DNA from: an uncultured Chloroflexia bacterium
GTDB lineage: Bacteria; Chloroflexota; Limnocylindria; Limnocylindrales; CSP1-4
NCBI GenBank assembly: GCA_963744115.1
Contig: CAVUSI010000002.1
Coordinates: 473,209 to 537,208, forward strand
Direction: 5' to 3'
Length of the DNA: 64,000 nt
The stretch's first letter is position 1. Every line of letters starts with the position of its first letter. Positions 20,849-63,294 of this stretch are shown here, piece by piece. Made by a program: the position numbers and the translations under genes. A model generated the notes under the pieces. The model was not told the origin of the DNA. It worked only from the letters and a program-made list of their open reading frames with translations, and did no database searches.

Positions 20849-20984
20849 GGGGGTCGGTCCTCCTGGTCCGCCGGGGGACCGTGTCGACGATCCTCGCCTG
20901 GGACGCGCGAAGGATAGTCGGCGGGCCCGGGGCGCTCTCGTCCGAGGAGGGCCGTTCGGTGCGGGCAGGCACCGAACGAAAGGG

Positions 20985-21272: not shown

Positions 21273-23052
21273 ATGGTCGGCCCCGCTGCCTCAGACGGCC
21301 CGCTGCTCGTGTTCGGGCCCCGATCCGCGACGTACGACTTCGGGCCCCATCACCCGCTCACCCCACGTCGGTTCGGTCCCGGCATCGACCTGCTCCGGGC
21401 CGTCGGGGCCGAACCGGGTCTCGCCCCCGAGCCGGCGACCGACGACGAGCTGCTCGCCGTCCACACCGAGGCGTACCTGGCGGCGGTCCGCCGGTTCAGC
21501 GCGGACCCCGGCCTCCCGCCGGCATTCGGGATCGCGCCGCTGGGCGATGTCCCGCCGTTCCGTGGCATGCACGCCGCCGCGGCCGCGGTCGCCGGCGGCT
21601 CGCTCGCGGCCATGGCGGCGATCCTCCGGGGCGAGGTCGAGCACGCCTACCACCCGGGCGGCGGTCTCCATCACGCCATGCCGGCGCGCGCGTCCGGCTT
21701 CTGCGTCTACGACGACCCGGCCCTGGCCATCTCAGCGGCCCGTCGGGCCGGCCTCCGCGTCCTGTATGTCGACCTCGACGTTCACCACGGCGACGGGGTC
21801 GAGGCGATCCACCGCGACGACCCGGGCGTCATGACCGTCTCCTTCCATGAATCGGGGCGCTACCTCTTCCCGGGGACCGGGTCCGCCGACGAGGCGGGTG
21901 ACGGGATCGCGGCCGGGACCGTCGTCAACATGCCGTTCGAGCCGCTCAGCGGGGACGGTGCCTGGCTGGCGGCGGTCCGGGCCCTTGTCCCGACCCTGGC
22001 CGGGGCATTCGGCCCCGACCTGATCGTCAGCCAGCACGGAGCGGACAGCCACGCCTGGGACCCCCTCGCGCACCTCCGGGTCACGACCACGGCGATGGGC
22101 GAGGCGGCGCGCCTGGTCGACGCCGTGGCCCACCGGTTCGCGGCCGGGCGCTGGCTGGCCACGGGCGGTGGCGGATACGAGGTCTATCGGGTGGTGCCGC
22201 GCGCCTGGGCGCTGACCTGGCTGGCGGGCGCTCACCGCGCGGTGCCCGACACCGTCCCCGAGCCGTGGCGCGAACGATGGGCGGGCGAGGCCGCTCGCTG
22301 GGACGTGGGATCGCTGCCGGACCGGTTCGAGGACCCGTCGAACGGCGGCTTCGGACGGGGACAGAGCCAGGCGGCCGCCGAAGCCGAGTCGCTCGCCACC
22401 CTCCAGCAGGTGCGCGACCTCGTCCTCCCGAGGCTGCTGACGGTTGCCGAGGACCGGGGCTGGTCCGAGACGACGACCGTCGGAACCGAGCCGGGCGGCG
22501 CCGCGGCCGACGACCGTTGGGATCCTGCCGGGCGCCCGATCGGCACGCCGGTCATCCGACGCCTCGATGCGACGTTGCTCGACGGCCTTCGGCTGGCGGC
22601 GCGGACGATCGCCCCGAGCGATCCCCACGACGCCATGGGCATCCTCGTCCGGGCGGTCCGCGCCGGCTCGCATCTCGTCGGTGCGGTCGACGGGGATCAT
22701 CTGGTCGGCGTCGCTCTCACGGCCTCCACCCAGCCCGGCCTCGGGTCAGGCCCCGCCGGGCGTCCGCGCCGACCCGGCCGGAGGACGAGCTGATCGCCCT
22801 CGGCGTCGCTCCCGGCCTGGCGGCGGCGAGGTCTCGCCGCGGCGCTGGTCGCGGCGTCGATCGAGGACGCCCGAGCCCGGAGCGTCGGCCTCCTCGCCAG
22901 GATCGGAACGGGGGAGCGCGACGTGATCGAACCGCTGCCGATCGTCGACCCGCCACGAGATCGCCGATCGCCTGCTGACGGGGGCAGGGTTCGAGCGGAT
23001 CCCTGGACCGCCGGGCGACAGTCCCGCGCGGGTCGTGGCCTACCGGACGTAG
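21273..23052 (+). CDS. acuC: AcuC/HDAC-family deacetylase with a C-terminal GNAT-like domain (frameshifted)
   Basis: GGGLHHA, GFCVYDD, DLDVHHGDG, GADSHAWDP, GGGGY. The tail continues through shifted frames as DELIALGVAP-AWRRRGLAAAL...GFERIP to TAG at 23050-52. Confidence 0.82.
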
Positions 23053-23107
23053 AAGAAGCGGCGAGCCCCAGCTCGCCGCTTCGTTCGGTCGGGATCGATC
23101 GTCGGCG

Positions 23108-23320
23108 TCAGCCGGCGAGGACCGCGGATGCGGTGGCGATGATCGCCGCCGCCGCGCTTCCGAGTGCCACCAGGAGGCGATTCCCGCCGCCCCACTTCGG
23201 ATCCGGCGTCGAGTGGATCCGGGCCTCGTGGGCCTGCTTGGCGAGCCGGCTCCGGTCCGCCTCGCGCATCAGATCGGCCTGATGGTGACGAGTGAACTCC
23301 TGGCTGAAGTAGGTGTTCAT
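23108..23320 (-). CDS. Small hypothetical protein (70 aa)
   Basis: MNTYFSQEFTRHHQADLMREADRSRLAKQA with a hydrophobic C-terminus; GAGGGG RBS; high GC3. Confidence 0.7.
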   Translation of the reverse strand: MNTYFSQEFTRHHQADLMREADRSRLAKQAHEARIHSTPDPKWGGGNRLLVALGSAAAAIIATASAVLAG

Positions 23321-23661
23321 GTCATCCCCTCGGTTCGTTCGTGGGTGCTGCCGCATCCGTTGCCTGAATGCTCCACCCGGGAGGCCCGTCCGGACGACCG
23401 CCCGGCCGACCCGTCACCGGTCAACCCGAGCCACCGCTGGGAGTCGCACCAGGCCTACCCCGGCTGTCACCCGTGCGACACGGCCCGTGCTCTCGGTGAC
23501 CTTCGAGAGGGTCAAGGTGCCGACCAATGGCACCCCCAAGGCGGGCCTCATGGCCCGTCATCACGCTTGCGGCCCGTCGCTATGGTGATGACGGTTTCGG
23601 AGCGCCGGAGTCGCCAGGATGAACAGGGCGGCTCGAACGGGCGCCCAGGGAGGGTCAGGAA

Positions 23662-52785: not shown

Positions 52786-53778
52786 TCAGTCGGTCAGCTC
52801 CAGCCGGGCGAGCTCCAACGCCCCGACGAGCGGGCCGCGCTCCCCGAGCAGGCCCGTCTCGATCCGCGGCGCCACCCGGACGGTCCAGGCGACGTGGCGG
52901 CGGACCGGCTCGAGCAGACCCGGGAGGGAGCCGACACCGCCGCTCAGCACGATGAGCTCGGGATCGAGCAACGCGACCAACGCGGAGATCCCGACGGCGA
53001 GGGCCTGCGCCTGATCCTCGATGAGCATCATCGCGACGGTGTCACCCTCGGCCGCCAGCAGCGTCGCATCGCCGACGCTCGCCCCGATCCACAACCGGGT
53101 GGGCGGTCCCGACCGAACGGCGGCATCGATCCGGTCGCGCAGGCCGGGGCCTGCGACCCGGGCCTCATACGACGGCACCTCACCGACGTCCGGAGGGCCT
53201 CCGGCGGCCGCGGGCTCGGACGAGCCCCCGCCGACCGGCAGGAACGCGATCTCGCCGGCCATCCCCCGCGCGCCGCGGATCAACCTGCCCCCGGCCACGA
53301 TCCCGACACCGATCCCGGTCCCGAGGGCGATGACGGCGAAGTCGTCGAGCCCGCGGGCGACGCCGTGCGCTCGCTCGCCGAGCGCGGCTGCATTCGCGTC
53401 GTTGTCCAGCGCGACGCGCATCCCGACGGCTCGTTCGAGATCCGAGCGGAGGCGGTCGGCGTCGGCCAGACCAGGGATGTTGTGGACGGAGTCGAGCTCG
53501 CCGCTGACCGGGTCCACGCCGACCGGGAGCGCGACCCCCGCCGACCGGATCGGCCGGTCGCTGGCGGCGGGACCGACCTCCCCGAGCAGGTCGTCGAGCG
53601 CCGCGGCGATCCGCTCGACGAGCCCGTGCGCCGAGTCGCGGACGGTGGGTTCGACCCGCTCGGCCAGGATGGTCCCGTCATCGTCGGCCAGGGCCGTCCT
53701 CAGCTTCGTGCCGCCCACGTCGACGCCGAACAGTCGACCCGCCGGCGCCTCCCGAGGCCCGGACCCGGCCCCGCTCAT
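52786..53778 (-). CDS. ROK-family protein
   Basis: GVDVGGTK, DNDANAAALGE, GTGIGVGI, AGEI; lacks the CxCG zinc motif. Confidence 0.9.
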   Translation of the reverse strand: MSGAGSGPREAPAGRLFGVDVGGTKLRTALADDDGTILAERVEPTVRDSAHGLVERIAAALDDLLGEVGPAASDRPIRSAGVALPVGVDPVSGELDSVHNIPGLADADRLRSDLERAVGMRVALDNDANAAALGERAHGVARGLDDFAVIALGTGIGVGIVAGGRLIRGARGMAGEIAFLPVGGGSSEPAAAGGPPDVGEVPSYEARVAGPGLRDRIDAAVRSGPPTRLWIGASVGDATLLAAEGDTVAMMLIEDQAQALAVGISALVALLDPELIVLSGGVGSLPGLLEPVRRHVAWTVRVAPRIETGLLGERGPLVGALELARLELTD

Positions 53779-55052
53779 GACCCGCTGAACCGCGGGAGGT
53801 ACCCGACGTTCCGCTCGAGGATCGCCTCGAGCAGGCCTTCGGCAGCGCGGACGTCCGGGACGAGGGGATTGGCGACCAGCGCCAGGAGGGCTGCCCGCTG
53901 ATCGCCGGTCGTCGCCGCGGTGACCGCCAGCTCCTCGTAGGCCTTGGCGGCCTGGACCAGCCCGCGCATCTCCGGCGCGAGCGGCGCCAGCGGCAGCGGA
54001 TGAGCCCCGTCGCGGTCGATCCGGGCCGGGATCTCGACCACGGCGCGGTCCGGCAGGTCGGGGATCGCCCCGTCGTTCCGGATATCGACCACCTGGACGT
54101 CCCCGGTCCCGGCGTGGAGCGATGCGATCAGCTGCGCCGCGGCCTCGCTGTAGAACGCCCCGCCGCGCTCCTCGAGGAGCGCCGGCTTCCGATCGAGGGT
54201 CGGGTCCCGATACAGATCGAGGAGCTCGCGCTCGATGGCCATGACGTCCTCCGCCCGGGTCCCGCCGGCGAGCTGCTCGGCGAGGACCTCGGCGGTCGCG
54301 TAGTAGTAGTGGAGGTAGTAGGAGGGGATCGCCCCGAGGGCCCGCAGCAACTCGACCGGTGAATCGACGTCCTCCGCGAGCCCGGCCGCCTCGGCGTCGT
54401 CCGCCAGCATCCCGGGCAGCCGATCGACGCCGTCGACCATGACCGCCCGGATCCAGGTCAGATGGTTGAGTCCGACGTGTTCGAGCGCCACCCGATCGGG
54501 GGTCACCCCGAACCGGGTGGCCAGCCGGCGCTGGAACCCGATGGCGACGTTGCACAGCCCGATCGCCCGGTGCCCGGCGTCGAGGAGGGCCTGGCTGACG
54601 ATCCCGACCGGGTTGGTGAAGTCCACGATCCAGGCGTCCGGTGCGCTCCTCCGGCCGACCTCCTCGGCCAGGTCGAGGACGACCGGTACCGTGCGGAGGG
54701 CCTTGGCGAACCCGCCCGGTCCCGTCGTCTCCTGGCCGATGCAGCCGAACCGGTGAGGAAGCGTCTCGTCGGTCAATCGAGCGGCCTGGCCGCCGACCCG
54801 GAGCTGGACCAGCACGAACGCGGCGCCGTCGATGGCATCGGCCCGATCGGTCGAGATGACGAGTCGTCCGGGCCAACCCTGCCGCCGCAGGATCCGGTCG
54901 GCGAGCCCGCCGACGATCGCCAGCCGGTCGGGGTCGATGTCGTACAGGACCAGCTCGTCGACGGGCAGGCTGGTGGTCCGGTCGGCGATGCCCTGGACGA
55001 GCTCCGGTGTGTAGGTGCTGCCTCCACCGATCACGGCGATCTTCAGGCCCAT
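53775..55052 (-). CDS. GH4 glycoside hydrolase (6-phospho-beta-glucosidase-like)
   Basis: IAVIGGGSTYTPEL, GQETTGPGG, FTNP, GLCN, GLNHL, GGAFYS. Confidence 0.94.
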   Translation of the reverse strand: MGLKIAVIGGGSTYTPELVQGIADRTTSLPVDELVLYDIDPDRLAIVGGLADRILRRQGWPGRLVISTDRADAIDGAAFVLVQLRVGGQAARLTDETLPHRFGCIGQETTGPGGFAKALRTVPVVLDLAEEVGRRSAPDAWIVDFTNPVGIVSQALLDAGHRAIGLCNVAIGFQRRLATRFGVTPDRVALEHVGLNHLTWIRAVMVDGVDRLPGMLADDAEAAGLAEDVDSPVELLRALGAIPSYYLHYYYATAEVLAEQLAGGTRAEDVMAIERELLDLYRDPTLDRKPALLEERGGAFYSEAAAQLIASLHAGTGDVQVVDIRNDGAIPDLPDRAVVEIPARIDRDGAHPLPLAPLAPEMRGLVQAAKAYEELAVTAATTGDQRAALLALVANPLVPDVRAAEGLLEAILERNVGYLPRFSGS

Positions 55053-55078
55053 CGGGTGCCCACCCTTCCACGAACCCC

Positions 55079-55123
55079 TTGACAACCGGACCTCAGCATG
55101 TCCAAGGTTCGTTATAACGTTAT
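55079..55123. promoter_or_regulatory. Divergent promoter with overlapping palindromes (GntR operator candidate)
   Basis: TTGACA at 55079; GTTATAAC at 55111-18 and ATAACGTTAT at 55114-23. Confidence 0.6.
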
Positions 55124-55154
55124 CAGCAACCAGCCCGCCGACGATAGGGTGCAG

Positions 55155-55925
55155 ATGGCGAGATTCCGGCTCGAATCCGGGCCCGTGCCGCTCCATCATC
55201 AGGTCTACGTCGACCTGCGTGCATCGCTCGATGCCGGGGAGTGGCGGCCTGGGGACCGACTCCCGACCGAGCGCGATCTCGCGGCCCGCTACGGGTGCAG
55301 CCTGATCACGGTCCGTCGCGCGCTGAGCGAGCTCGCCCGCGAGCACCGGCTCGAGCGGACCCGCGGGCGTGGCACGTTCGCCACCACGCCGCCGATCGAG
55401 CTGGACCTGGGTGGCTCGATGAGCTTCACCGAGGAGATGCAGGTTCGCGGTCTCGATCCCGAGACGCGGCTGCTGGTGGCTCGCCGGCAGCCCGCCGGAG
55501 AAGGCGTGGCCGAGGCGCTCGATCTCAAGGTCGGTGCCCCGACGCTGTTCGTCGAGCGGCTCCGCATCAGCGCCGGCGAGCCGCTGCTGCTCGAGGGCGT
55601 TCACCTGCCGGCCGATCGCTTCCCCGGCCTGCTGGCGGTCGACCTCGAGCACACCTCGCTGTACGAGCTGCTGACGACCCGCTACGGCACGCGGATCGTC
55701 CGGGCCCGCGAGTGGCTCGAGCCGGTCCACCCGTCCCGCCGGGTCGCCGACCTGCTCGGCCAGGATCCGCACCGGCCGGCGCTCCTGGTCGAGAGCATCG
55801 CCTATGGCGAGCACGACGTGCCGATCGAGTACGGCCGGTCGCACATCCGCGGCGACCGGACCCGCTACTACGTCGAACGGTTGGTCGTCCGATCCGAACA
55901 GGCCCTGCTGTCGGCGGTCAGGTGA
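55155..55925 (+). CDS. GntR/HutC-family regulator with UTRA domain
   Basis: PLHHQV...GDRLPTERDLAARYGCSLITVRRAL...RGRGTF, SFTEEM, SLYELL. Confidence 0.93.
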   Translation: MARFRLESGPVPLHHQVYVDLRASLDAGEWRPGDRLPTERDLAARYGCSLITVRRALSELAREHRLERTRGRGTFATTPPIELDLGGSMSFTEEMQVRGLDPETRLLVARRQPAGEGVAEALDLKVGAPTLFVERLRISAGEPLLLEGVHLPADRFPGLLAVDLEHTSLYELLTTRYGTRIVRAREWLEPVHPSRRVADLLGQDPHRPALLVESIAYGEHDVPIEYGRSHIRGDRTRYYVERLVVRSEQALLSAVR

Positions 55926-55973
55926 CCGCCCCGAACCATCCCCAAGTCGTTCGATAGGAGGAGGACAGGCACG

Positions 55974-57344
55974 ATGACAACCAGGATCAGGGCTCTGGCT
56001 GGACTGGCAGCACTGGCGATCATCGCCGGCGCCTGCGGGTCTTCGGCCGCCACCTCGGCGCCGACCAGCGCGGCGACCGCAGCACCGACCGCCGCTGCTT
56101 CGAGCGACGCGGGCGCCTCGATCGCTCCGACGCCCGCCCCGAGCTACGACACCACGCCCGTCACCATCAAGGTCTGGGACTACTACGGCGAGACCACCCC
56201 GATCAAGCCGGCCCTCGACGGGTTCAAGAAGGAATTCCCGTGGATCACGGTCGACTACCAGGCGCTCGACTGGGATTCGATGAACGAGAAGTTCAAGGCC
56301 GGCCTCGGAGCCGGTGAGGTCCCCGACCTCGCGACTCTCGACATGACCTGGATCCCGACCCTCGCCGCGAACGGCGCGCTCGACGACCTGACCCCGATCT
56401 CCGGCGGGATGCTCAACGGGACCCCGATCAAGGACCAGTACACCCCGGGCGCCCTCGACGCCATGACCTACGGCGACGAGATGGTGTCGATGCTGTACGA
56501 CTTCGACACCTACGCGCTGTACTACCGGAAGGACCTGTTCGACCAGAAGGGCATCGCCGTGCCGACGAACTGGGACGAGTTCCGGGCGGCCGCGAAGGCC
56601 CTGGCCGAGTCGTCCAAGCCGGGCGGCAAGCCGGACAAGTACCTCACGGCGATCCGTCCGAACAGCTTCCACTTCTCGCAGTACCTCTACCAGGACGGTG
56701 GCTCGCTGCTCAACGAGGACAACACCAAGGCCGTCTTCAACTCGCCCGAGGGCGTCGACGCGGTCGGTATCCAGAAGGCGATCCTGGATGACGGGAGCGG
56801 CAAGTACTGGGCCGACTCCCAGGGCGACCTGACCCCGGCGATCAAGTCCGGCGAGGTCGCGATGTTCCAGGACGGGCCGTACTACATGGGCCTGCTGAAG
56901 AGCGGCGTGCCCGAGCAGTCCGGCAAGTGGGCGGTGGCCACCGCCCCGTTCTCGAAGCAGCCCGGAAGCTACCTGGGCGGGACCGGCCTCGGTATCCCCG
57001 TCCAGGCCGAGCACAAGGACGCCGCTTGGCTGCTCGCCCAGTACCTCCTCCGGCCCGACCAGCAGATCGGTGTCTTCAACTACGCCGGTGCGGCGCCGGC
57101 GACGACCGCGGCGCTCCAGAGCCCGGACCTGACCAAGCCGGATCCGTACTTCGGCGGTGAGCAGCCGTTCAGCGTCTTCCTCGAGTCGATGAAGACCTCG
57201 CGTCCGTTCCCCTATGTCGGGGCGTGGGACGATATCGACGTCGCCATCGCGGACGCGATGCAGAAGGCCCTGCTCGGCAAGGCCGAGGTCCAGAAAGCCC
57301 TCGACGACGCGGTCAACGAGACGAACACCCTGCTCGCGAAGTGA
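55974..57344 (+). CDS. Sugar ABC transporter substrate-binding lipoprotein
   Basis: Lipobox IAGAC followed by an Ala/Thr/Pro linker; GEVPDL, ALYYRKDLF, PTNWDE, YLGGTGL. Confidence 0.93.
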   Translation: MTTRIRALAGLAALAIIAGACGSSAATSAPTSAATAAPTAAASSDAGASIAPTPAPSYDTTPVTIKVWDYYGETTPIKPALDGFKKEFPWITVDYQALDWDSMNEKFKAGLGAGEVPDLATLDMTWIPTLAANGALDDLTPISGGMLNGTPIKDQYTPGALDAMTYGDEMVSMLYDFDTYALYYRKDLFDQKGIAVPTNWDEFRAAAKALAESSKPGGKPDKYLTAIRPNSFHFSQYLYQDGGSLLNEDNTKAVFNSPEGVDAVGIQKAILDDGSGKYWADSQGDLTPAIKSGEVAMFQDGPYYMGLLKSGVPEQSGKWAVATAPFSKQPGSYLGGTGLGIPVQAEHKDAAWLLAQYLLRPDQQIGVFNYAGAAPATTAALQSPDLTKPDPYFGGEQPFSVFLESMKTSRPFPYVGAWDDIDVAIADAMQKALLGKAEVQKALDDAVNETNTLLAK

Positions 57345-57380
57345 TCGCACGGGAGCGATGACCGGAGGCCTGATCCGATC

Positions 57381-58253
57381 GTGAGCGCGAAGATCGCCCG
57401 GCGGTTCCGCGGGGCGTCGGCGGGCTACCTGCTGATCGCCCCGGCGCTCATCGTGACGATCGTATTCCTGGTCATCCCGATGATCGTGTCCGGGTACTGG
57501 AGCCTGACGCACTACAACGGCATCAAGCCGCCACAGTTCGTCGGGCTCCAGAACTACGTCGACGTCCTGACCAACCCGCGCTTCCAGCGATCGTTCCAGA
57601 ACACCATCTTCTTCGTCGTGATGGGGATGGCGATCGGGCCGCTCCTCGGGCTCGGCTCGGCCATCCTGCTCAACGACAAGCTCCGCCTCCGGGCGCTCTT
57701 CCGGACGTCGTTCTTCCTGCCGACGATGACCTCGCTCATCGTCGTGGCGACGATCTGGAAGCTGATGTACGCCGACAACGGGGTCATCAACGCGGTCGCG
57801 GCCACCTTCGGCCTGCCCGGCCACGACTGGCTCAACGATCCGACCCTGGCCCTGCCGGCGGTCGTGGTCACGGCCATCTGGCAGGGCTTCGGGTTCGAGA
57901 CCGTCGTCTTCCTGGCGGCCCTCCAGGCCGTCCCGAAGGAGTACTACGAAGCCGCGACGGTCGATGGCGCCGGCCGCTGGGCGAAGTTCCGCTGGGTGAC
58001 CCTGCCGGGCATCCGCCCGACGATCGTGTTCGTCTACGTGATCGGCATCATCGGCAGCTTCCAGACCTTCGACCAGGTCTTCGTCATGACCAACGGCGGC
58101 CCGATCCAGGCGACGCGGACGATCGTGTTCGACCTGGTCGACCGCTTCAACAAGCTCGACATCGGCGGCGCCTCGGCCGTCGCCTACATCCTGCTCGTCT
58201 TCCTGGCCGTGCTCAGCTACGCCCAGCTCCGGCTGGGCGAGGCGCGAGACTGA
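57381..58253 (+). CDS. Sugar ABC transporter permease 1
   Basis: YLLIAPA, VGLQNY, FFLP, EAA loop YYEAATVDGAGRWAKFRWVTLP. Confidence 0.95.
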   Translation: MSAKIARRFRGASAGYLLIAPALIVTIVFLVIPMIVSGYWSLTHYNGIKPPQFVGLQNYVDVLTNPRFQRSFQNTIFFVVMGMAIGPLLGLGSAILLNDKLRLRALFRTSFFLPTMTSLIVVATIWKLMYADNGVINAVAATFGLPGHDWLNDPTLALPAVVVTAIWQGFGFETVVFLAALQAVPKEYYEAATVDGAGRWAKFRWVTLPGIRPTIVFVYVIGIIGSFQTFDQVFVMTNGGPIQATRTIVFDLVDRFNKLDIGGASAVAYILLVFLAVLSYAQLRLGEARD

Positions 58254-58261
58254 GGCCGGCG

Positions 58262-59111
58262 ATGCGATCGAGGCGGCGCGACCGGATCGCCAAGAGCGGG
58301 TTCCTGCTGCTCGCGTCCCTCCTGATGATCGTCCCGTTCCTGTGGGCCCTGTCGACCTCGTTCAAGCTGCCCAGCGACGTGTTCGCCTACCCGCCGCGGT
58401 TCCTGCCCGACCCGTTCACCGCCGACAACTACCGGAACATCACCACGCTGATCCCGTTCCCCAGGTACTTCCTCAACAGCACGATCGTGACGGGCACGAT
58501 CGTCGTGCTCAATGTGTTCTTCGGGACCGCGGCGGCGTACGCCTTCGCCAAGCTCAAGTTCCCGGGACGCGACGCGATCTTCTTCCTGCTGCTGCTGACC
58601 CTGATGGTCCCGTTCCAGGTCAACCTCATCCCGCTGTTCAAGATGATGGTCGAGCTCCACAAGGCGATTCCCGCCGCTCGGCGCCGACACGTACTTCGGG
58701 CTGATCGCGCCGAGTGCCGTGTCGGTCTTCGGGATCTTCCTGATGCGGGGATTCCTGCGCTCGATCCCGGACGAGATCCTCGAGTCGGCCCGGATGGACG
58801 GTGCGTCCGAGCTCCGGGTCCTCCGTTCGATCGTCTTCCCGTTGGCGGTCCCGGGGATGGCCACCCTGGCGATCTTCACCTTCCTGGGGGCCTGGAACGA
58901 CTTCCTCTGGCCGCTGATCGTGACCAGCTCGGAGGACATGCGGACGCTGCCGCTGGGGCTCGCCCTGCTGGCCCGCCGGAACAACTCCGACTGGGGGACG
59001 ACGATGGCCGGGACGATCGTGACCGCCGCGCCGATGATCATCATCTTTCTGCTCATGCAGCGCCGGTTCATCGAGGGTCTGACCGCCGGAGCGGTCAAGG
59101 ACGGCGGGTGA
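58262..59111 (+). CDS. Sugar ABC transporter permease 2, one frameshift
   Basis: AAYAFAKLKFPGR in the first frame; EILESARMDGAS...IVFP, WNDFLWP and GAVK in ORF 58719..59111; extra C at ~58670. Confidence 0.88.
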
Positions 59112-60194
59112 GCGAGCGGCCGGCGGTCGCCGGCGGCGACCAATTCCTGACCGAGATCGGCGGCCAGCCCGAGGCGATGCGCCGGGCGCACGGAGCGGTG
59201 GCCCGCCAGGCGGACCGGCTCGGCGACCTGGCCCGGCGGCCTCGAGACGGGACGATCGTGATGACCGGCATGGGCAGCTCGTACGACGCCTGCCACGTGC
59301 CGGTGACGATGCTCACGGAGGGCGGATCGCGGGCGAGCCTGGTCAACGCCGCGGAGCTGCTCCACTTCCAGTCGGCGAGCCTCGACGGCCGGACGACGCT
59401 CGTCGTGGTCAGCCAGTCCGGACGGAGCGTCGAGATCGTCCGCCTGCTCGAGGACCTCGCCCGGCGACCAGACCGGCCCTTCGTCGTGGCCGTCACCAAC
59501 GGGACCGACAACCCCCTGGCAGTCGGGGCCGACGTCGCCTTCGACACGGCGGTCGGCGACGAGCTCGGTCCGTCGACGATGACCTTCGCCGGGTCGCTGG
59601 TGGCGCTCGATGCCGTCGCCCGGGTCCTCGCCGCCCCGTCGGCGGAGATCGACGACGTCGTCCGAGCCGTCGGTGCCGATGTCGACGGAGCCGCGAGTGG
59701 CGGCCGAGGCGCTGCTCGCCGAGCGGGCGGCGGTCAGCGCGATCATGGTCCGCTGGGCGGCGGCCCGGCCGCACCTGGTCATCCTCGGCCGAGGGACCGG
59801 GCGAGCGGCCGCGGACATGGCCGCCCTGACCATCAAGGAGGTCGCCGGGGCCTCCGCCGAGGCGCTGGTGGCGGCAGACTTCCGCCATGGTCCGCTCGAG
59901 CTCGTCGACCCGTCGCTGGCGGTCGCGTTCGTGACCCTGGAGACCGCGACCGACGGGATCGATCGGTCGTTCGCGACGGAGCTGTCGATCGGCCCCGCCT
60001 CGGTGGTCGTCGTCGGTCGCGAACCGGGCACCGACGGTGCCGTCGCATCGATCGCGATCGGCCCGGTCGACCGGCGCCTCGCGCCCGCGGTCGCGATGAT
60101 CCCGTTCCAGCTGCTCGCCCGCGAGCTGGCGATCGAGCGAGGACGACGGCCGGGCGAGTTCAGCCGGGCCTCCAAGGTCACGACGCGCGAATGA
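59108..60194 (+). CDS. Double-SIS-domain protein (GlmS/NagB-II/FrlB-like), one frameshift
   Basis: FLTEIGGQPEA, GMGSSY, SQSGRS, VTN, IKE...DFRHGP; break at ~59695. Confidence 0.85.
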
Positions 60195-62263
60195 GCGCGG
60201 TGGTCGGTCGCGGCCGGCATTACCTCCAGCGCGACGGGCGGTCGATCGTCCCGGTCGGCGCCCACTTCGTCCCGGTCGAAGGGCCCGATTGGCCGTGGCG
60301 GGTCGGACCGGAGGCGTTCGACCGGGCGTTCGCGGCGATGGCCGCGGCCGGGCTCGATACGGTCCGGATCGACCTCCTGTGGGCGGCGCTCGAACCGGCG
60401 GAGGGGCGATTCGACGCGGATCACCTCGCGGTCCTCGACGAGATCCTCGCCTCCGCCCGGCGACATGGGCTGCTCCTCCACCCGACGTTCTTCATCGGCG
60501 GCGAGGTCGGCGATGCCTACTGGGACGTCCCGTGGCGGGCGGGACGCCACCCGCACCGCGATCCGGGCCTGATCGATCGGCAGGCCGCGCACGTCGCCGA
60601 GCTCGGGCGGCGCTGGCGGGACGATCCGGCGATCCTCGCCTGGGACCTGACCGACGAGCCGCCCCTGTGGCTGTTCACCGACACGACGGACGACGACGCG
60701 CGAGGCTGGACGGCCGCCCTCGCCGCGTCGCTCCGATCCGTGGACCCGACCCACCTGATCACGATCGGGACGGCCAGCCAGGAGGTCGGGGTCGGACCGT
60801 TCCGGGCCGACGTCGTGGCTGGGCTGCTCGACTTCACGACCGTCCATCCGTACCCGACCTACAACCCCGACCTGGTCCCCGACAGCCTGCTCAGTCGACG
60901 GATGACCCAGGCGGCGGCCTTCGAGACGGCGCTGGCGGCCGGCGCGGGGCGCCCGGTGATGCTCCATGAGTACGGGGTCTCGTCGGCGCAGTTCGACCCG
61001 GAGCTCGCCGCCGACTACGACCGGCTGCTGAGCTGGTCGAGCTTCGGTCGCGGGGCGATCGGCTTCCTCGCCTGGTGCTGGACCGATGCCGAGCCGGCCG
61101 CGGCTCGCCGGGCGCCGTACGTCCGCCAGCCGCACGAGACCCAGTTCGGCGTGACCGACCACCTCGGCGGCTTGCGACCGCGTGGTCGGGTCCTCCGGGA
61201 GGTCGCCGCGACCCTCGCCGTCCTGTCCGACGACCTCGACGGCCTCGCCGGTGACGGACCGGTCGCCTGCTCGGCCATCCCGGTCCCGCACGAGTACGTC
61301 CGCGCCTACGACCCGGCGGGGTTCGGCCTGACCGACGCTCCGGCGGGACCCTATGCCCCGGCCGAGATGGCCTGGGCACCACAGCGGGACCACCTCCCGC
61401 TCGTGCGTGGCTGGCTCAACGCGTTCGTGCTTGCGGCGAGGGCCGGAGCGTCGGTGGCGTTCGAGCGCGAGTCGCTCGACGACGTCTGGCCGGTCGTCCC
61501 GCTGGTCATCGTCCCGGCGCCGCTCACGTCCACCACGTCGTCGCTGCTCCACGTGCGGACGAGCTTCTGGCACGGCGCGGAGGCGCACTTCGGGCGCGGC
61601 GGGTCGCTCTGGCTGTCGATGGCCGCCGATGCGGCCCTGCCCGGGATGGGGTCGCTGGCCGGCTGCCATCTCGCCGACCGCGCGCCCGCGGATCGCCCCG
61701 GCACGCTCCGGTTCGTCCGGCCGTGGGGCCCGTTCGCGACGGGGGACGAGCTGACCCTGCCGACCGGCGATGGCTCGCTGTCCACCCGCTGGGCGCGGCT
61801 GGCGCTCGACGACGGCGAGGTCGTCGCGCTCGATGCGGACGGCGGCCCCGGCCTGGTCGTCGCCGCCCGCGGGTCGGGGCTCGTCGCGACCTGCGCCGCG
61901 CCCGTCGAACTGCTCCTCGCGGCCCGGCCCGATGCGCACGGCGCGCTCGACCGGAGCTGGGGCCTGTACGCCGGGCTGCTCGCCGAGGCCGGCATCCGCG
62001 AGCCCGCCTCGGTCGACCATCCGGAGGTGACCTGCGGGACGCTCCACGGTCCGTCCGGTGGACTGGCGGTGCTCACGAACCACGGGGAGGCGGACCTTCG
62101 GGTGGACCTCCGGCTGCCGGACGATGCCGCCGCCATCCGTCGCTACCGGCCGACCGGGATCGAGCCGCTCGCGCCGGTCCGTGCGCCGACGGGGGACATC
62201 ACGGTCGCGCTCGAGCTGCCGCCCCGGGGCTTCGCGATCGTCGGCTGGGTGGGGCGGACGTGA
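60191..62263 (+). CDS. Clan GH-A glycoside hydrolase (GH5/GH42-like) with C-terminal extension
   Basis: GLDTVRI, WDLTDEP (acid/base), VHPY, MLHEYG (nucleophile), WCW. Confidence 0.85.
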   Translation: MSAVVGRGRHYLQRDGRSIVPVGAHFVPVEGPDWPWRVGPEAFDRAFAAMAAAGLDTVRIDLLWAALEPAEGRFDADHLAVLDEILASARRHGLLLHPTFFIGGEVGDAYWDVPWRAGRHPHRDPGLIDRQAAHVAELGRRWRDDPAILAWDLTDEPPLWLFTDTTDDDARGWTAALAASLRSVDPTHLITIGTASQEVGVGPFRADVVAGLLDFTTVHPYPTYNPDLVPDSLLSRRMTQAAAFETALAAGAGRPVMLHEYGVSSAQFDPELAADYDRLLSWSSFGRGAIGFLAWCWTDAEPAAARRAPYVRQPHETQFGVTDHLGGLRPRGRVLREVAATLAVLSDDLDGLAGDGPVACSAIPVPHEYVRAYDPAGFGLTDAPAGPYAPAEMAWAPQRDHLPLVRGWLNAFVLAARAGASVAFERESLDDVWPVVPLVIVPAPLTSTTSSLLHVRTSFWHGAEAHFGRGGSLWLSMAADAALPGMGSLAGCHLADRAPADRPGTLRFVRPWGPFATGDELTLPTGDGSLSTRWARLALDDGEVVALDADGGPGLVVAARGSGLVATCAAPVELLLAARPDAHGALDRSWGLYAGLLAEAGIREPASVDHPEVTCGTLHGPSGGLAVLTNHGEADLRVDLRLPDDAAAIRRYRPTGIEPLAPVRAPTGDITVALELPPRGFAIVGWVGRT

Positions 62264-63294
62264 CGGCGGCGATCCTGGCCGTCGACGGTGGCAACTCCAA
62301 GGCCGACATCGCGCTCGTGGCTCCGGACGGGACGCTCCTCGGGGCGGTGCGGGGGCCGACGGTCTCCCACCAGGCCGTCGGCCTCGGGCCTGGGCTCGAT
62401 GCCCTCGAGTCGACCGTCGGACACCTGCTCCGTCATGCCGCTGCCGACCCCGACCTGCGGCCGGTGGCGCGGGTCGGCATCTTCACCCTGGCCGGCGCGG
62501 ACCTCCCCGCCGACATGCGGCTGCTCCGGCGGGCGCTCGTCGAACGGGCGCTGGTCGACGAGGTCGTCGTCCTCAACGACACCCACGCCGCGCTGCGGGC
62601 CGGGAGCGATCGCCCGTGGGGTGTCGTCGTCGTCTGCGGTGCCGGGATCAACGGACTGGGGGTCGGCCCGACCGGCCGGACGGTCCGCTTCGCCGGCGTC
62701 GGCGAGTACTCCGGCGACCGCGGCGGCGGCGGCGATGTCGGGACCGCCGCCCTGGCGGCGGCGATCCGGGGCCGTGACGGTCGAGGACCCCGAACCAACC
62801 TCGAGCGGCGCGTCCCGGCCCACTTCGGTCTGCGCCGGCCCGACGACCTGACGCTCGAGCTGTACTCGGGACGGCTCGACCCGGACCGCCTCCGCGAGCT
62901 CACCCCGCTCGTCTTCGCGACCGCGGCCGACGGGGACACCGTCGCGACCGCGATCGTCGACGCCCTGGCCGATGAGGTCGTCGCCTGGGCACGAGCGATC
63001 ATCCGACGACTGCACCTTACCCGCCGCGACGTCCCGGTCGTCCTGTCGGGCGGTGTCTTCCGGACGTCGTTCGAGCCGTTCTTCGCTCGGATCCGGTCGG
63101 GTGTCGCGCGAGTCGCTCCGAGCGCCCTGGTCGAGCGACTCGACGCCCCGCCGGTCCTGGGTGCGGCGCTCCTCGGTCTCGATCGCCTCGAGCTCCAACC
63201 CGCCGACCGACGAGCGGCCGAGGTCCGGCTCCGTGCGACCCTGACCGATGACCGGTTGCGGACCGGCGCCGCCGGGCTGCCGGACGAGGGGTAG
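62260..63294 (+). CDS. BadF/BadG-type sugar kinase (GlcNAc/GlcN kinase-like)
   Basis: LAVDGGNSK, NDTHAAL, VCGAG, GGGG, LSGGVF. Confidence 0.9.
   Translation: MTAAILAVDGGNSKADIALVAPDGTLLGAVRGPTVSHQAVGLGPGLDALESTVGHLLRHAAADPDLRPVARVGIFTLAGADLPADMRLLRRALVERALVDEVVVLNDTHAALRAGSDRPWGVVVVCGAGINGLGVGPTGRTVRFAGVGEYSGDRGGGGDVGTAALAAAIRGRDGRGPRTNLERRVPAHFGLRRPDDLTLELYSGRLDPDRLRELTPLVFATAADGDTVATAIVDALADEVVAWARAIIRRLHLTRRDVPVVLSGGVFRTSFEPFFARIRSGVARVAPSALVERLDAPPVLGAALLGLDRLELQPADRRAAEVRLRATLTDDRLRTGAAGLPDEG

Follow-up and report, generated by a model that had tools for sequence, protein, structure and literature searches.

A predicted catabolic cluster for oligosaccharides ending in glucosamine in an uncultured Limnocylindrales bacterium

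The sequence analyzed here (the window) is a 64,000-nucleotide stretch of contig CAVUSI010000002.1 from an uncultured Chloroflexia bacterium of the order Limnocylindrales (assembly GCA_963744115.1). At positions 52786–63294 it contains two divergent operons that probably form a catabolic unit for beta-linked oligosaccharides with glucosamine (GlcN) at the non-reducing end, the predicted substrates being chitosan or partly deacetylated chitin oligomers. One operon encodes a hydrolase of glycoside hydrolase family 4 (GH4) and a ROK-family kinase; the other encodes a GntR-type regulator, an ATP-binding cassette (ABC) importer composed of a solute-binding protein (SBP) and two permeases, a two-SIS-domain protein, a hydrolase of clan GH-A, and a BadF-type kinase. 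The initial annotation had described this gene set as an amino-sugar oligomer cluster resembling, and extending, the Streptomyces csn operon, and gene calls based on Pfam and on frame analysis of G+C content at third codon positions (GC3) recovered all nine genes where it had placed them. The aspects that appear to be new are the combination of csn-like enzymes with a non-csn importer and regulator, a clade of hydrolases with an Asp-Glu motif as candidate exo-glucosaminidases, an apparent link to CE4 deacetylases, and two frameshifts that are probably artefacts.

The clan GH-A hydrolase and its Asp-Glu motif

The clan GH-A enzyme, which is without a signal peptide, was modeled with AlphaFold2 (AF2; pLDDT 90, pTM 0.93) as a GH5-like TIM barrel within a GH42-type three-domain architecture. 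Its top match, both in sequence (3e-19) and in structure (PDB 7BOB; Z 41, 540 residues aligned, 22% identity), was Op5Man5, a GH5 exo-beta-1,4-mannosidase that forms a GH42-type trimer and shares the three-domain layout; the next structural matches were GH5_18 mannosidases acting on mannose (Man) linked to N-acetylglucosamine (GlcNAc), that is, on Man-beta-1,4-GlcNAc (Z 32–36), followed by GH164 and GH42 enzymes. HMMER aligned Glu156 and Glu260 of the window enzyme with the mutagenesis-verified Glu156 and Glu281 of Op5Man5, and in the AF2 model Glu156 follows strand 4 (residues 151–152) and Glu260 follows strand 7 (residues 256–259), the places of the acid/base and the nucleophile, respectively, in GH5 and other clan GH-A barrels. 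Membership in GH35, the family of archaeal GlmA, was rejected (Pfam Glyco_hydro_35, 20.4 bits with a cut-off of 27; NCBIfam GH35_fam, 20 bits with a cut-off of 500), and GH42 was likewise ruled out by score; GlmA was not among the Foldseek/VIA matches listed for the model, which has no bearing on the GH35 question.

In one respect the active site departs from GH5 enzymes: Asp155-Glu156 stands in place of the clan-wide Asn-Glu, which Op5Man5 retains in its action on neutral mannosides, whereas the window enzyme is encoded among amino-sugar genes. The same replacement of Asn-Glu by Asp-Glu is known from archaeal GlmA, in which Asp178 binds the C2 amine of GlcN (C2-NH3+), the side chain of Asp178 excludes GlcNAc, and the D178N variant is inactive (PMC6566704). 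The surrounding motif, WDL[TSA]DEPP, was invariant in 40 homologs with identities down to 40%. When 1.84 billion representatives were searched with a profile, 382 relatives reached E 1e-30 or better. All representatives in the top clade (to ∼400 bits) had Asp-Glu, while a shorter sequence scoring 296 bits had WDLSDGPP; relatives beyond the top clade had mostly Asn-Glu, with Asp-Glu in a few other clades. An amine-binding role, known for GlmA only, is predicted for Asp155, and the amino-sugar substrate proposed in the initial annotation gains new support from this motif, at the level of sequence. The inferred activity is that of an exo-beta-D-glucosaminidase that underwent the same switch as GlmA, starting from a mannosidase-like GH5 ancestor. 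No description of a GH5-type exo-glucosaminidase was found in the literature, and a scan of 150 complete Actinomycetes genomes, with 7 candidates scored per genome, detected no such GH5-like gene besides that of the seed genome. Other Asp-Glu clades of the same superfamily (WDICDEPE and YDLGDEL) differ in the context of the nucleophile and may represent further amine-specific glycosidases.

Scanning a genome collection with the hydrolase as query yielded 49 loci, which span Chloroflexota, Actinomycetota (Streptosporangiaceae, Nocardioides, and Microbacteriaceae), Dormibacterota, and one metagenome-assembled genome (MAG) labeled Planctomycetaceae. A cognate ABC permease lay beside the hydrolase gene in 46 of the 49 loci, and SIS, GH4, or BadF genes occurred within 10 kb of it in 43, including 11 with all three. 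Strand and gene order differed among the loci, and retention of the genes through such rearrangement across phyla argues that they work in one pathway. The SBPs linked to the GH5-like gene were 50–57% identical across phyla. Three Asn-Glu relatives in Chloroflexota, a small control, had no SIS, GH4, or BadF gene nearby. The Actinomycetota loci have as their regulator a ROK protein bearing a helix-turn-helix (HTH) domain, encoded next to the SBP, and an MsiK-type ATPase has been added in three loci. A CE4 polysaccharide deacetylase is inserted in four loci (two in Actinomycetota and two in Chloroflexota), located either between the hydrolase or SIS gene and the BadF gene, or between the BadF and GH4 genes. 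The CE4 homolog of the window genome itself was rejected as a partner, its neighborhood being unrelated to sugar use.

A wider proposal is offered tentatively, with confidence somewhat short of even: the WDLTDEPP clade may constitute an unrecognized family of cytoplasmic bacterial exo-beta-D-glucosaminidases that arose by a GlmA-like Asn-to-Asp switch from a beta-mannosidase-like GH5 ancestor, and that serves, together with CE4, GH4, a kinase, and the SIS protein, in an archaeal-style, deacetylation-dependent route for chitin/chitosan oligomers, free of the phosphotransferase system (PTS), in uncultured soil Chloroflexota and Actinomycetota.

Partner enzymes and comparison with known systems

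The GH4 protein carries both Pfam domains of its family and an NAD-binding GGGS motif in its N-terminus, IAVIGGGSTYTP, and it is closest to 6-phospho-beta-glucosidases (PDB 5C3M, 1S6Y, and 1UP6; E 1e-106 to 1e-75), with matches to non-phospho alpha-glucosidases of the AglA type at E 1e-15 or weaker. It is thus placed in the 6-phospho-beta-glycosidase clade, and a need for a phosphorylated substrate is predicted. E. coli ChbF, which belongs to this clade as well, cleaves glycosides of GlcN 6-phosphate (GlcN-6-P), according to the citation of Walter 2021 in PMC12791066. Neither an EIIC nor an enzyme I above cut-off was found in this 86%-complete genome, in agreement with the PTS independence originally proposed, so that any phosphorylation of the GH4 substrate would fall to a cytoplasmic kinase. 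The two kinase types named at the outset were both confirmed by Pfam. The BadF-type kinase matched NCBIfam NagK_SO3507 (2e-13; 51 bits with a cut-off of 370) and the MurK structure 8ZO3 (9e-23); for the ROK kinase, the top NCBIfam matches were glucokinase and BglK, both under cut-off, and the top PDB matches were ROK glucokinases and the Listeria beta-glucoside kinase 4HTL. As a guess, the kinase that primes GH4 is the BadF type rather than ROK, because a BadF-type gene adjoins GH4 in csn-type clusters.

The intact SIS ortholog aligned end to end with the isomerase domain of E. coli GlmS (1MOQ), retaining the SQSG phosphate loop and the equivalents of GlmS Glu488, His504, and Lys603, with Lys485 replaced by Thr. 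The NCBIfam matches were GlmS (4e-31), NagB-II (2e-19), GlmD (4e-11), AgaS (9e-7), and FrlB (7e-5); identification as MurQ, FrlB, or AgaS was rejected, as those profiles were much weaker than GlmS and NagB-II. No classical nagB was found in the 86%-complete genome, so any amino-sugar catabolism would need an SIS-type deaminase; nagA and three GH18 genes are present elsewhere in the genome. The kept GlmS isomerase residues, the NagB-II and GlmD profile matches, and the apparent lack of a classical nagB back the suggestion, made in the initial annotation, that the SIS protein is a GlcN-6-P deaminase, for which it is considered a candidate.

In Streptomyces, csnR encodes a repressor, csnEFG an ABC transporter, csnH a GH4 hydrolase, and csnK a putative oligosaccharide kinase (PMC5635096; bioRxiv 10.1101/2023.09.20.558697; PMC6520443), and csn clusters are tied by genetics to GlcN-oligomer uptake (PMC5635096; PMC6520443). 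Orthologs of the window GH4 at E 1e-80 or better were present in 31 of 151 sampled complete Actinomycetes genomes. Nine of 12 GH4 contexts comprised a ROK-HTH regulator, an SBP (detected in eight), two permeases, GH4, and a BadF-type kinase, and a BadF-type kinase gene adjoined GH4 in all 12 (BcrAD_BadFG by Pfam in the locus tested, the others being similar). These csn-ordered clusters were equated with SCO2657–2662 by published gene order only, and orthology of the GH4 to SCO2661 is likewise inferred. Across the 12 loci, the window GH4 was 53–63% identical over >95% of its length to the GH4 of the csn-ordered clusters, and the BadF kinase was 39–47% identical to the product of the gene after GH4, so that the likeness to csn seen earlier holds for the enzymes. 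In both systems, an ABC transporter imports the sugar without a PTS, and a GH4 hydrolase and a sugar kinase of the cluster's own act after import; the window GH4 is orthologous to the CsnH-type enzymes, and the BadF kinase, whose gene in the window is the last of the other operon, corresponds to the gene in the CsnK position.

The remaining csn components differ. The window importer belongs to a different orthologous group from that of csn-ordered clusters (SBP 25–30% and permeases 30–38% identical), and in place of a ROK repressor, CsnR, as the first gene, the window has a GntR/HutC-UTRA regulator, its ROK protein being kinase-sized and without an HTH. The window further adds the SIS protein, the GH5-like hydrolase, and a second kinase (ROK), and GH4 is in a divergent operon; the cluster can therefore be said to extend the csn arrangement, as had been proposed. 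CsnK is described as a ROK-family kinase in a preprint (bioRxiv 10.1101/2023.09.20.558697), whereas the kinase in the CsnK position here is of the BcrAD_BadFG family, and the family assignment merits a check against SCO2662; the motif Q-x2-RE-x2-AA (quoted in PMC6520443), sought as a link between the csn-ordered loci sampled and SCO2662, was not found in them, which speaks neither for nor against that link. One csn-ordered cluster, with a divergent MsiK ATPase and CE4 upstream and an SIS gene downstream, has a layout between those of Streptomyces and the window.

Three other systems share parts of the proposed scheme. The chitin pathway of archaeal Thermococcus and Pyrococcus employs the deacetylase Dac, the GH35 enzyme GlmA, a GlcN kinase, and the SIS deaminase GlmD, and the window resembles it in having a clan GH-A exo-enzyme with GH42-like architecture and Asp-Glu, an SIS deaminase, and a hexosamine kinase, with a deacetylase in four related loci; however, the window hydrolase has a GH5-like barrel and is not a GH35 enzyme, the deacetylases are CE4 rather than Dac-type, the kinases are of the ASKHA type and not ADP-dependent, and a GH4 branch has been added. 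Shewanella likewise encodes an SIS deaminase, NagB-II (SO3506), and a BadF hexosamine kinase, NagK (SO3507), in one operon, and the window proteins match both profiles at the E values given above, although they score far under the equivalog cut-offs and the window cluster has no NagA. In the E. coli chb system, which includes the deacetylase ChbG, a GH4 of the same clade (ChbF) cleaves GlcN-6-P glycosides once they are de-N-acetylated; phosphorylation there is carried out by the PTS during uptake, whereas the window genome, in which no PTS was found, would require a cytoplasmic kinase.

Locus organization, control region, and frame breaks

The coordinates of the cluster are listed in Table 1. 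Stop and start codons overlap (ATGA or GTGA) at the GH4/ROK, permease 2/SIS, SIS/hydrolase, and hydrolase/BadF junctions, which indicates two tightly coupled divergent operons. The flanking genes are unrelated housekeeping genes (glutamate dehydrogenase and a DRTGG protein upstream, pantoate ligase downstream), and the G+C content is ∼72%, although the organism is not an actinomycete. Gene order was identical in seven genomes of the same genus, with protein identities of 65–100%. No ABC ATPase gene was found within the cluster; an MsiK-like ATPase gene is located elsewhere in the same genome (contig C2, 432737–433813). The genome also holds a paralogous GH4, ABC, and SIS unit, all on one strand (contig C3, 965607–971997), that comprises GH4 (30% identical), an SBP, two permeases, GntR (45% identical), and a two-SIS protein, as well as a third sugar cluster (contig C2, 402404–410686) with two ROK genes, ABC permeases, and an SIS protein 33% identical to that of the window.

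Table 1. Features of the predicted amino-sugar oligosaccharide cluster, in window coordinates.
Feature	Position	Strand	Evidence and remarks
ROK-family sugar kinase	52786..53778	-	330 aa, without HTH; Pfam ROK 4e-40; ATG overlaps the GH4 stop codon (ATGA)
GH4 NAD+/Mn2+-type glycosidase, 6-phospho-beta-glucosidase clade, csnH-like	53775..55052	-	Pfam Glyco_hydro_4 and Glyco_hydro_4C, E 1e-47 and 1e-51
Divergent control region	55053..55154	.	Candidate HutC-type operator
GntR/HutC-family regulator with UTRA effector domain	55155..55925	+	Pfam GntR 2e-19, UTRA 6e-39
CUT1 solute-binding lipoprotein (SBP)	55974..57344	+	Pfam SBP_bac_1/8; lipobox-like AGAC near the N-terminus
ABC permease 1	57381..58253	+	Pfam BPD_transp_1
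ABC permease 2	58262..59111	+	Pfam BPD_transp_1; two frames in the window, one extra T at ∼58668-58670
Two-SIS-domain GlmS-isomerase-like enzyme, candidate GlcN-6-P deaminase	59108..60194	+	Extra base at ∼59697; GTG overlaps the permease stop codon
Cytoplasmic clan GH-A retaining glycosidase, candidate exo-beta-D-glucosaminidase	60191..62263	+	Pfam Cellulase/GH5 26.4 bits (cut-off 23.5); weak GH42/GH35
BadF/BcrAD-type (NagK/MurK-like) sugar kinase	62260..63294	+	Pfam BcrAD_BadFG 8e-19; GTG overlaps the hydrolase stop codon

The HutC-type control anticipated for the cluster is in keeping with a regulator composed of GntR and UTRA domains. The divergent region contains TTGACA (55079–55084), the invariant palindrome GTTATAAC (55111–55118), and immediately thereafter GTTATCAGCAAC (55119–55130). 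These elements were kept as DNA in 8 loci, despite diverged flanks and a broken reading frame, and the GTTATAAC element is a candidate HutC-type operator. Because this upstream conservation is at the level of DNA and not protein, the start of the regulator was reassigned to the ATG at 55155.

The outer coordinates and gene list of the initial annotation were sound, but the reading frames of permease 2 and SIS were not, one frame break in each having been overlooked. Alignment with relatives traced the single frame switch in permease 2 to a 1-bp insertion (GATTCCC, against GATCCC in the relatives), and the division of the SIS domains over two frames to another 1-bp insertion. Both genes are in one frame in seven of seven congeneric relatives and, the extra base aside, the halves are ∼97% (permease 2) and ∼89% (SIS) identical to the nearest relative. 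When 44 kb of the window was compared with a 93%-identical Illumina MAG (Chloroflexota bacterium Chersky_267), about a dozen isolated 1-bp insertions were found in the window, six of them clustered within 800 bp (22817–23597) and others at 20849, 33612, 44795, 45382, and 55066; isolated 1-bp deletions were few, and all were at gene boundaries or alignment ends. The genome consists of 3 contigs and yet has a marker completeness of only 86%, and sister long-read MAGs show comparable fragmentation, in other genes.

Given the in-frame relatives and the one-sided excess of 1-bp insertions relative to the Illumina MAG, the two frame breaks are quite likely assembly errors rather than signs of decay, and the cluster is therefore probably functional in the organism. 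Under the alternative, the insertions are real and the cluster is decaying in this genome, with import and deamination lost whatever the ancestral function; this accords with permease 2 and SIS both being out of frame in the window sequence, but it is unlikely in view of the seven in-frame relatives, the number and clustering of insertions, the fragmentation of other genes in sister MAGs, the few contigs of an incompletely recovered genome, and the high identity of the halves, and real pseudogenes were judged less likely than assembly error on the basis of the one-sided insertion excess. Assembly error should be kept in mind for any fusion or frameshift claim in this window.

Proposed substrate and pathway

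In the proposed pathway, the SBP lipoprotein and two permeases would import the oligomer, powered by the shared MsiK-type ATPase encoded elsewhere, and the cytoplasmic GH5-like enzyme would take GlcN off the non-reducing end, with the protonated amine at C2 paired to Asp155. Next, O6 of the remaining disaccharide would be phosphorylated by a kinase, most likely BadF, and GH4, through its NAD+-dependent mechanism, would cleave the product to give GlcN-6-P plus GlcN. The free hexosamine would be phosphorylated by the ROK kinase, and the SIS enzyme would deaminate GlcN-6-P, yielding fructose-6-P along with ammonium. The probable effector of the HutC/UTRA repressor is a phosphorylated amino sugar, and the repressor would act at GTTATAAC.

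Several points weigh against an assignment to GlcN oligomers. The nearest solved relatives of the hydrolase are beta-mannosidases (Op5Man5 and the GH5_18 Man-beta-1,4-GlcNAc enzymes), and the closest solved SBP is Lin1841, a binder of beta-1,2-gluco-(sophoro-)oligosaccharides (3e-34), a weak hint set beside a weak NCBIfam match to NgcE. Every NCBIfam match of the cluster is far under its equivalog cut-off (for the SIS protein, NagB_SO3506, 70 against 430 bits, and GlmD, 42.6 against 580 bits), and the enzyme roles of CsnH and CsnK are presumed ones (PMC5635096; bioRxiv 10.1101/2023.09.20.558697). For a homopolymer, a pair of hydrolases plus a pair of kinases seems redundant, and no GH46 chitosanase was found in the 86%-complete genome. 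Were both insertions real, moreover, permease 2 and SIS would be pseudogenes in this strain.

Among other substrates, a different amine-bearing glycoside seems improbable, be it beta-1,6-linked GlcN (deacetylated poly-N-acetylglucosamine), galactosamine or mannosamine oligomers, or a glycosylated Amadori compound (fructosamine) with the SIS protein as an FrlB-type deglycase. The Asp-Glu motif implies a C2 amine and fixes neither the linkage nor the epimer, two-SIS enzymes include AgaS and FrlB, to which the window protein has weak matches, and a HutC regulator with ABC, SIS, and kinase genes is also the layout of frl-type operons. The SIS protein scores far better with GlmS, NagB-II, and GlmD than with either FrlB or AgaS, however; the GH4 clade acts on beta-1,4-linked 6-phospho substrates of gluco or glucosamino configuration, and the link to csn-type genes together with CE4 favors chitin or chitosan products.

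Also improbable is a neutral substrate in which a beta-mannoside or beta-glucoside is attached to an N-acetylhexosamine, such as the Man-beta-1,4-GlcNAc of N-glycan cores, or a sugar of the sophorose type. In this case the hydrolase would be an exo-beta-mannosidase, BadF, the genomic NagA, and SIS would process the GlcNAc set free, and ROK and GH4 would act as a BglK-type kinase and 6-phospho-beta-glucosidase. The top matches of the hydrolase and SBP, the BglK match of ROK, and the presence of NagA in the genome are all compatible with it, but the Asn with which these mannosidases read the 2-OH has given way to the invariant Asp-Glu, the three Asn-Glu relatives in Chloroflexota are without amino-sugar neighbors, the cluster contains neither mannose-6-P isomerase nor NagA, GH4 and BadF match csn-type genes, and a CE4 deacetylase, where a cluster has one, speaks for de-N-acetylated sugars.

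In soil, chitin and chitosan make up major pools of carbon and nitrogen, and little is understood of their use by uncultured lineages that are abundant there, the Limnocylindrales-type Chloroflexota among them; for GlcN-terminated oligomers, the cluster provides a concrete, testable pathway of chitin/chitosan-oligomer use. That GH4 is repeatedly paired with a BadF-type kinase where a PTS is lacking supports a mechanism in which a kinase primes GH4, and it bears on the presumed roles of CsnH and CsnK. If the reading of the Asp-Glu hydrolase clade is true, it would be a case of convergent specificity switching within clan GH-A, and its members might find use in making defined chitosan oligomers or glucosamine.

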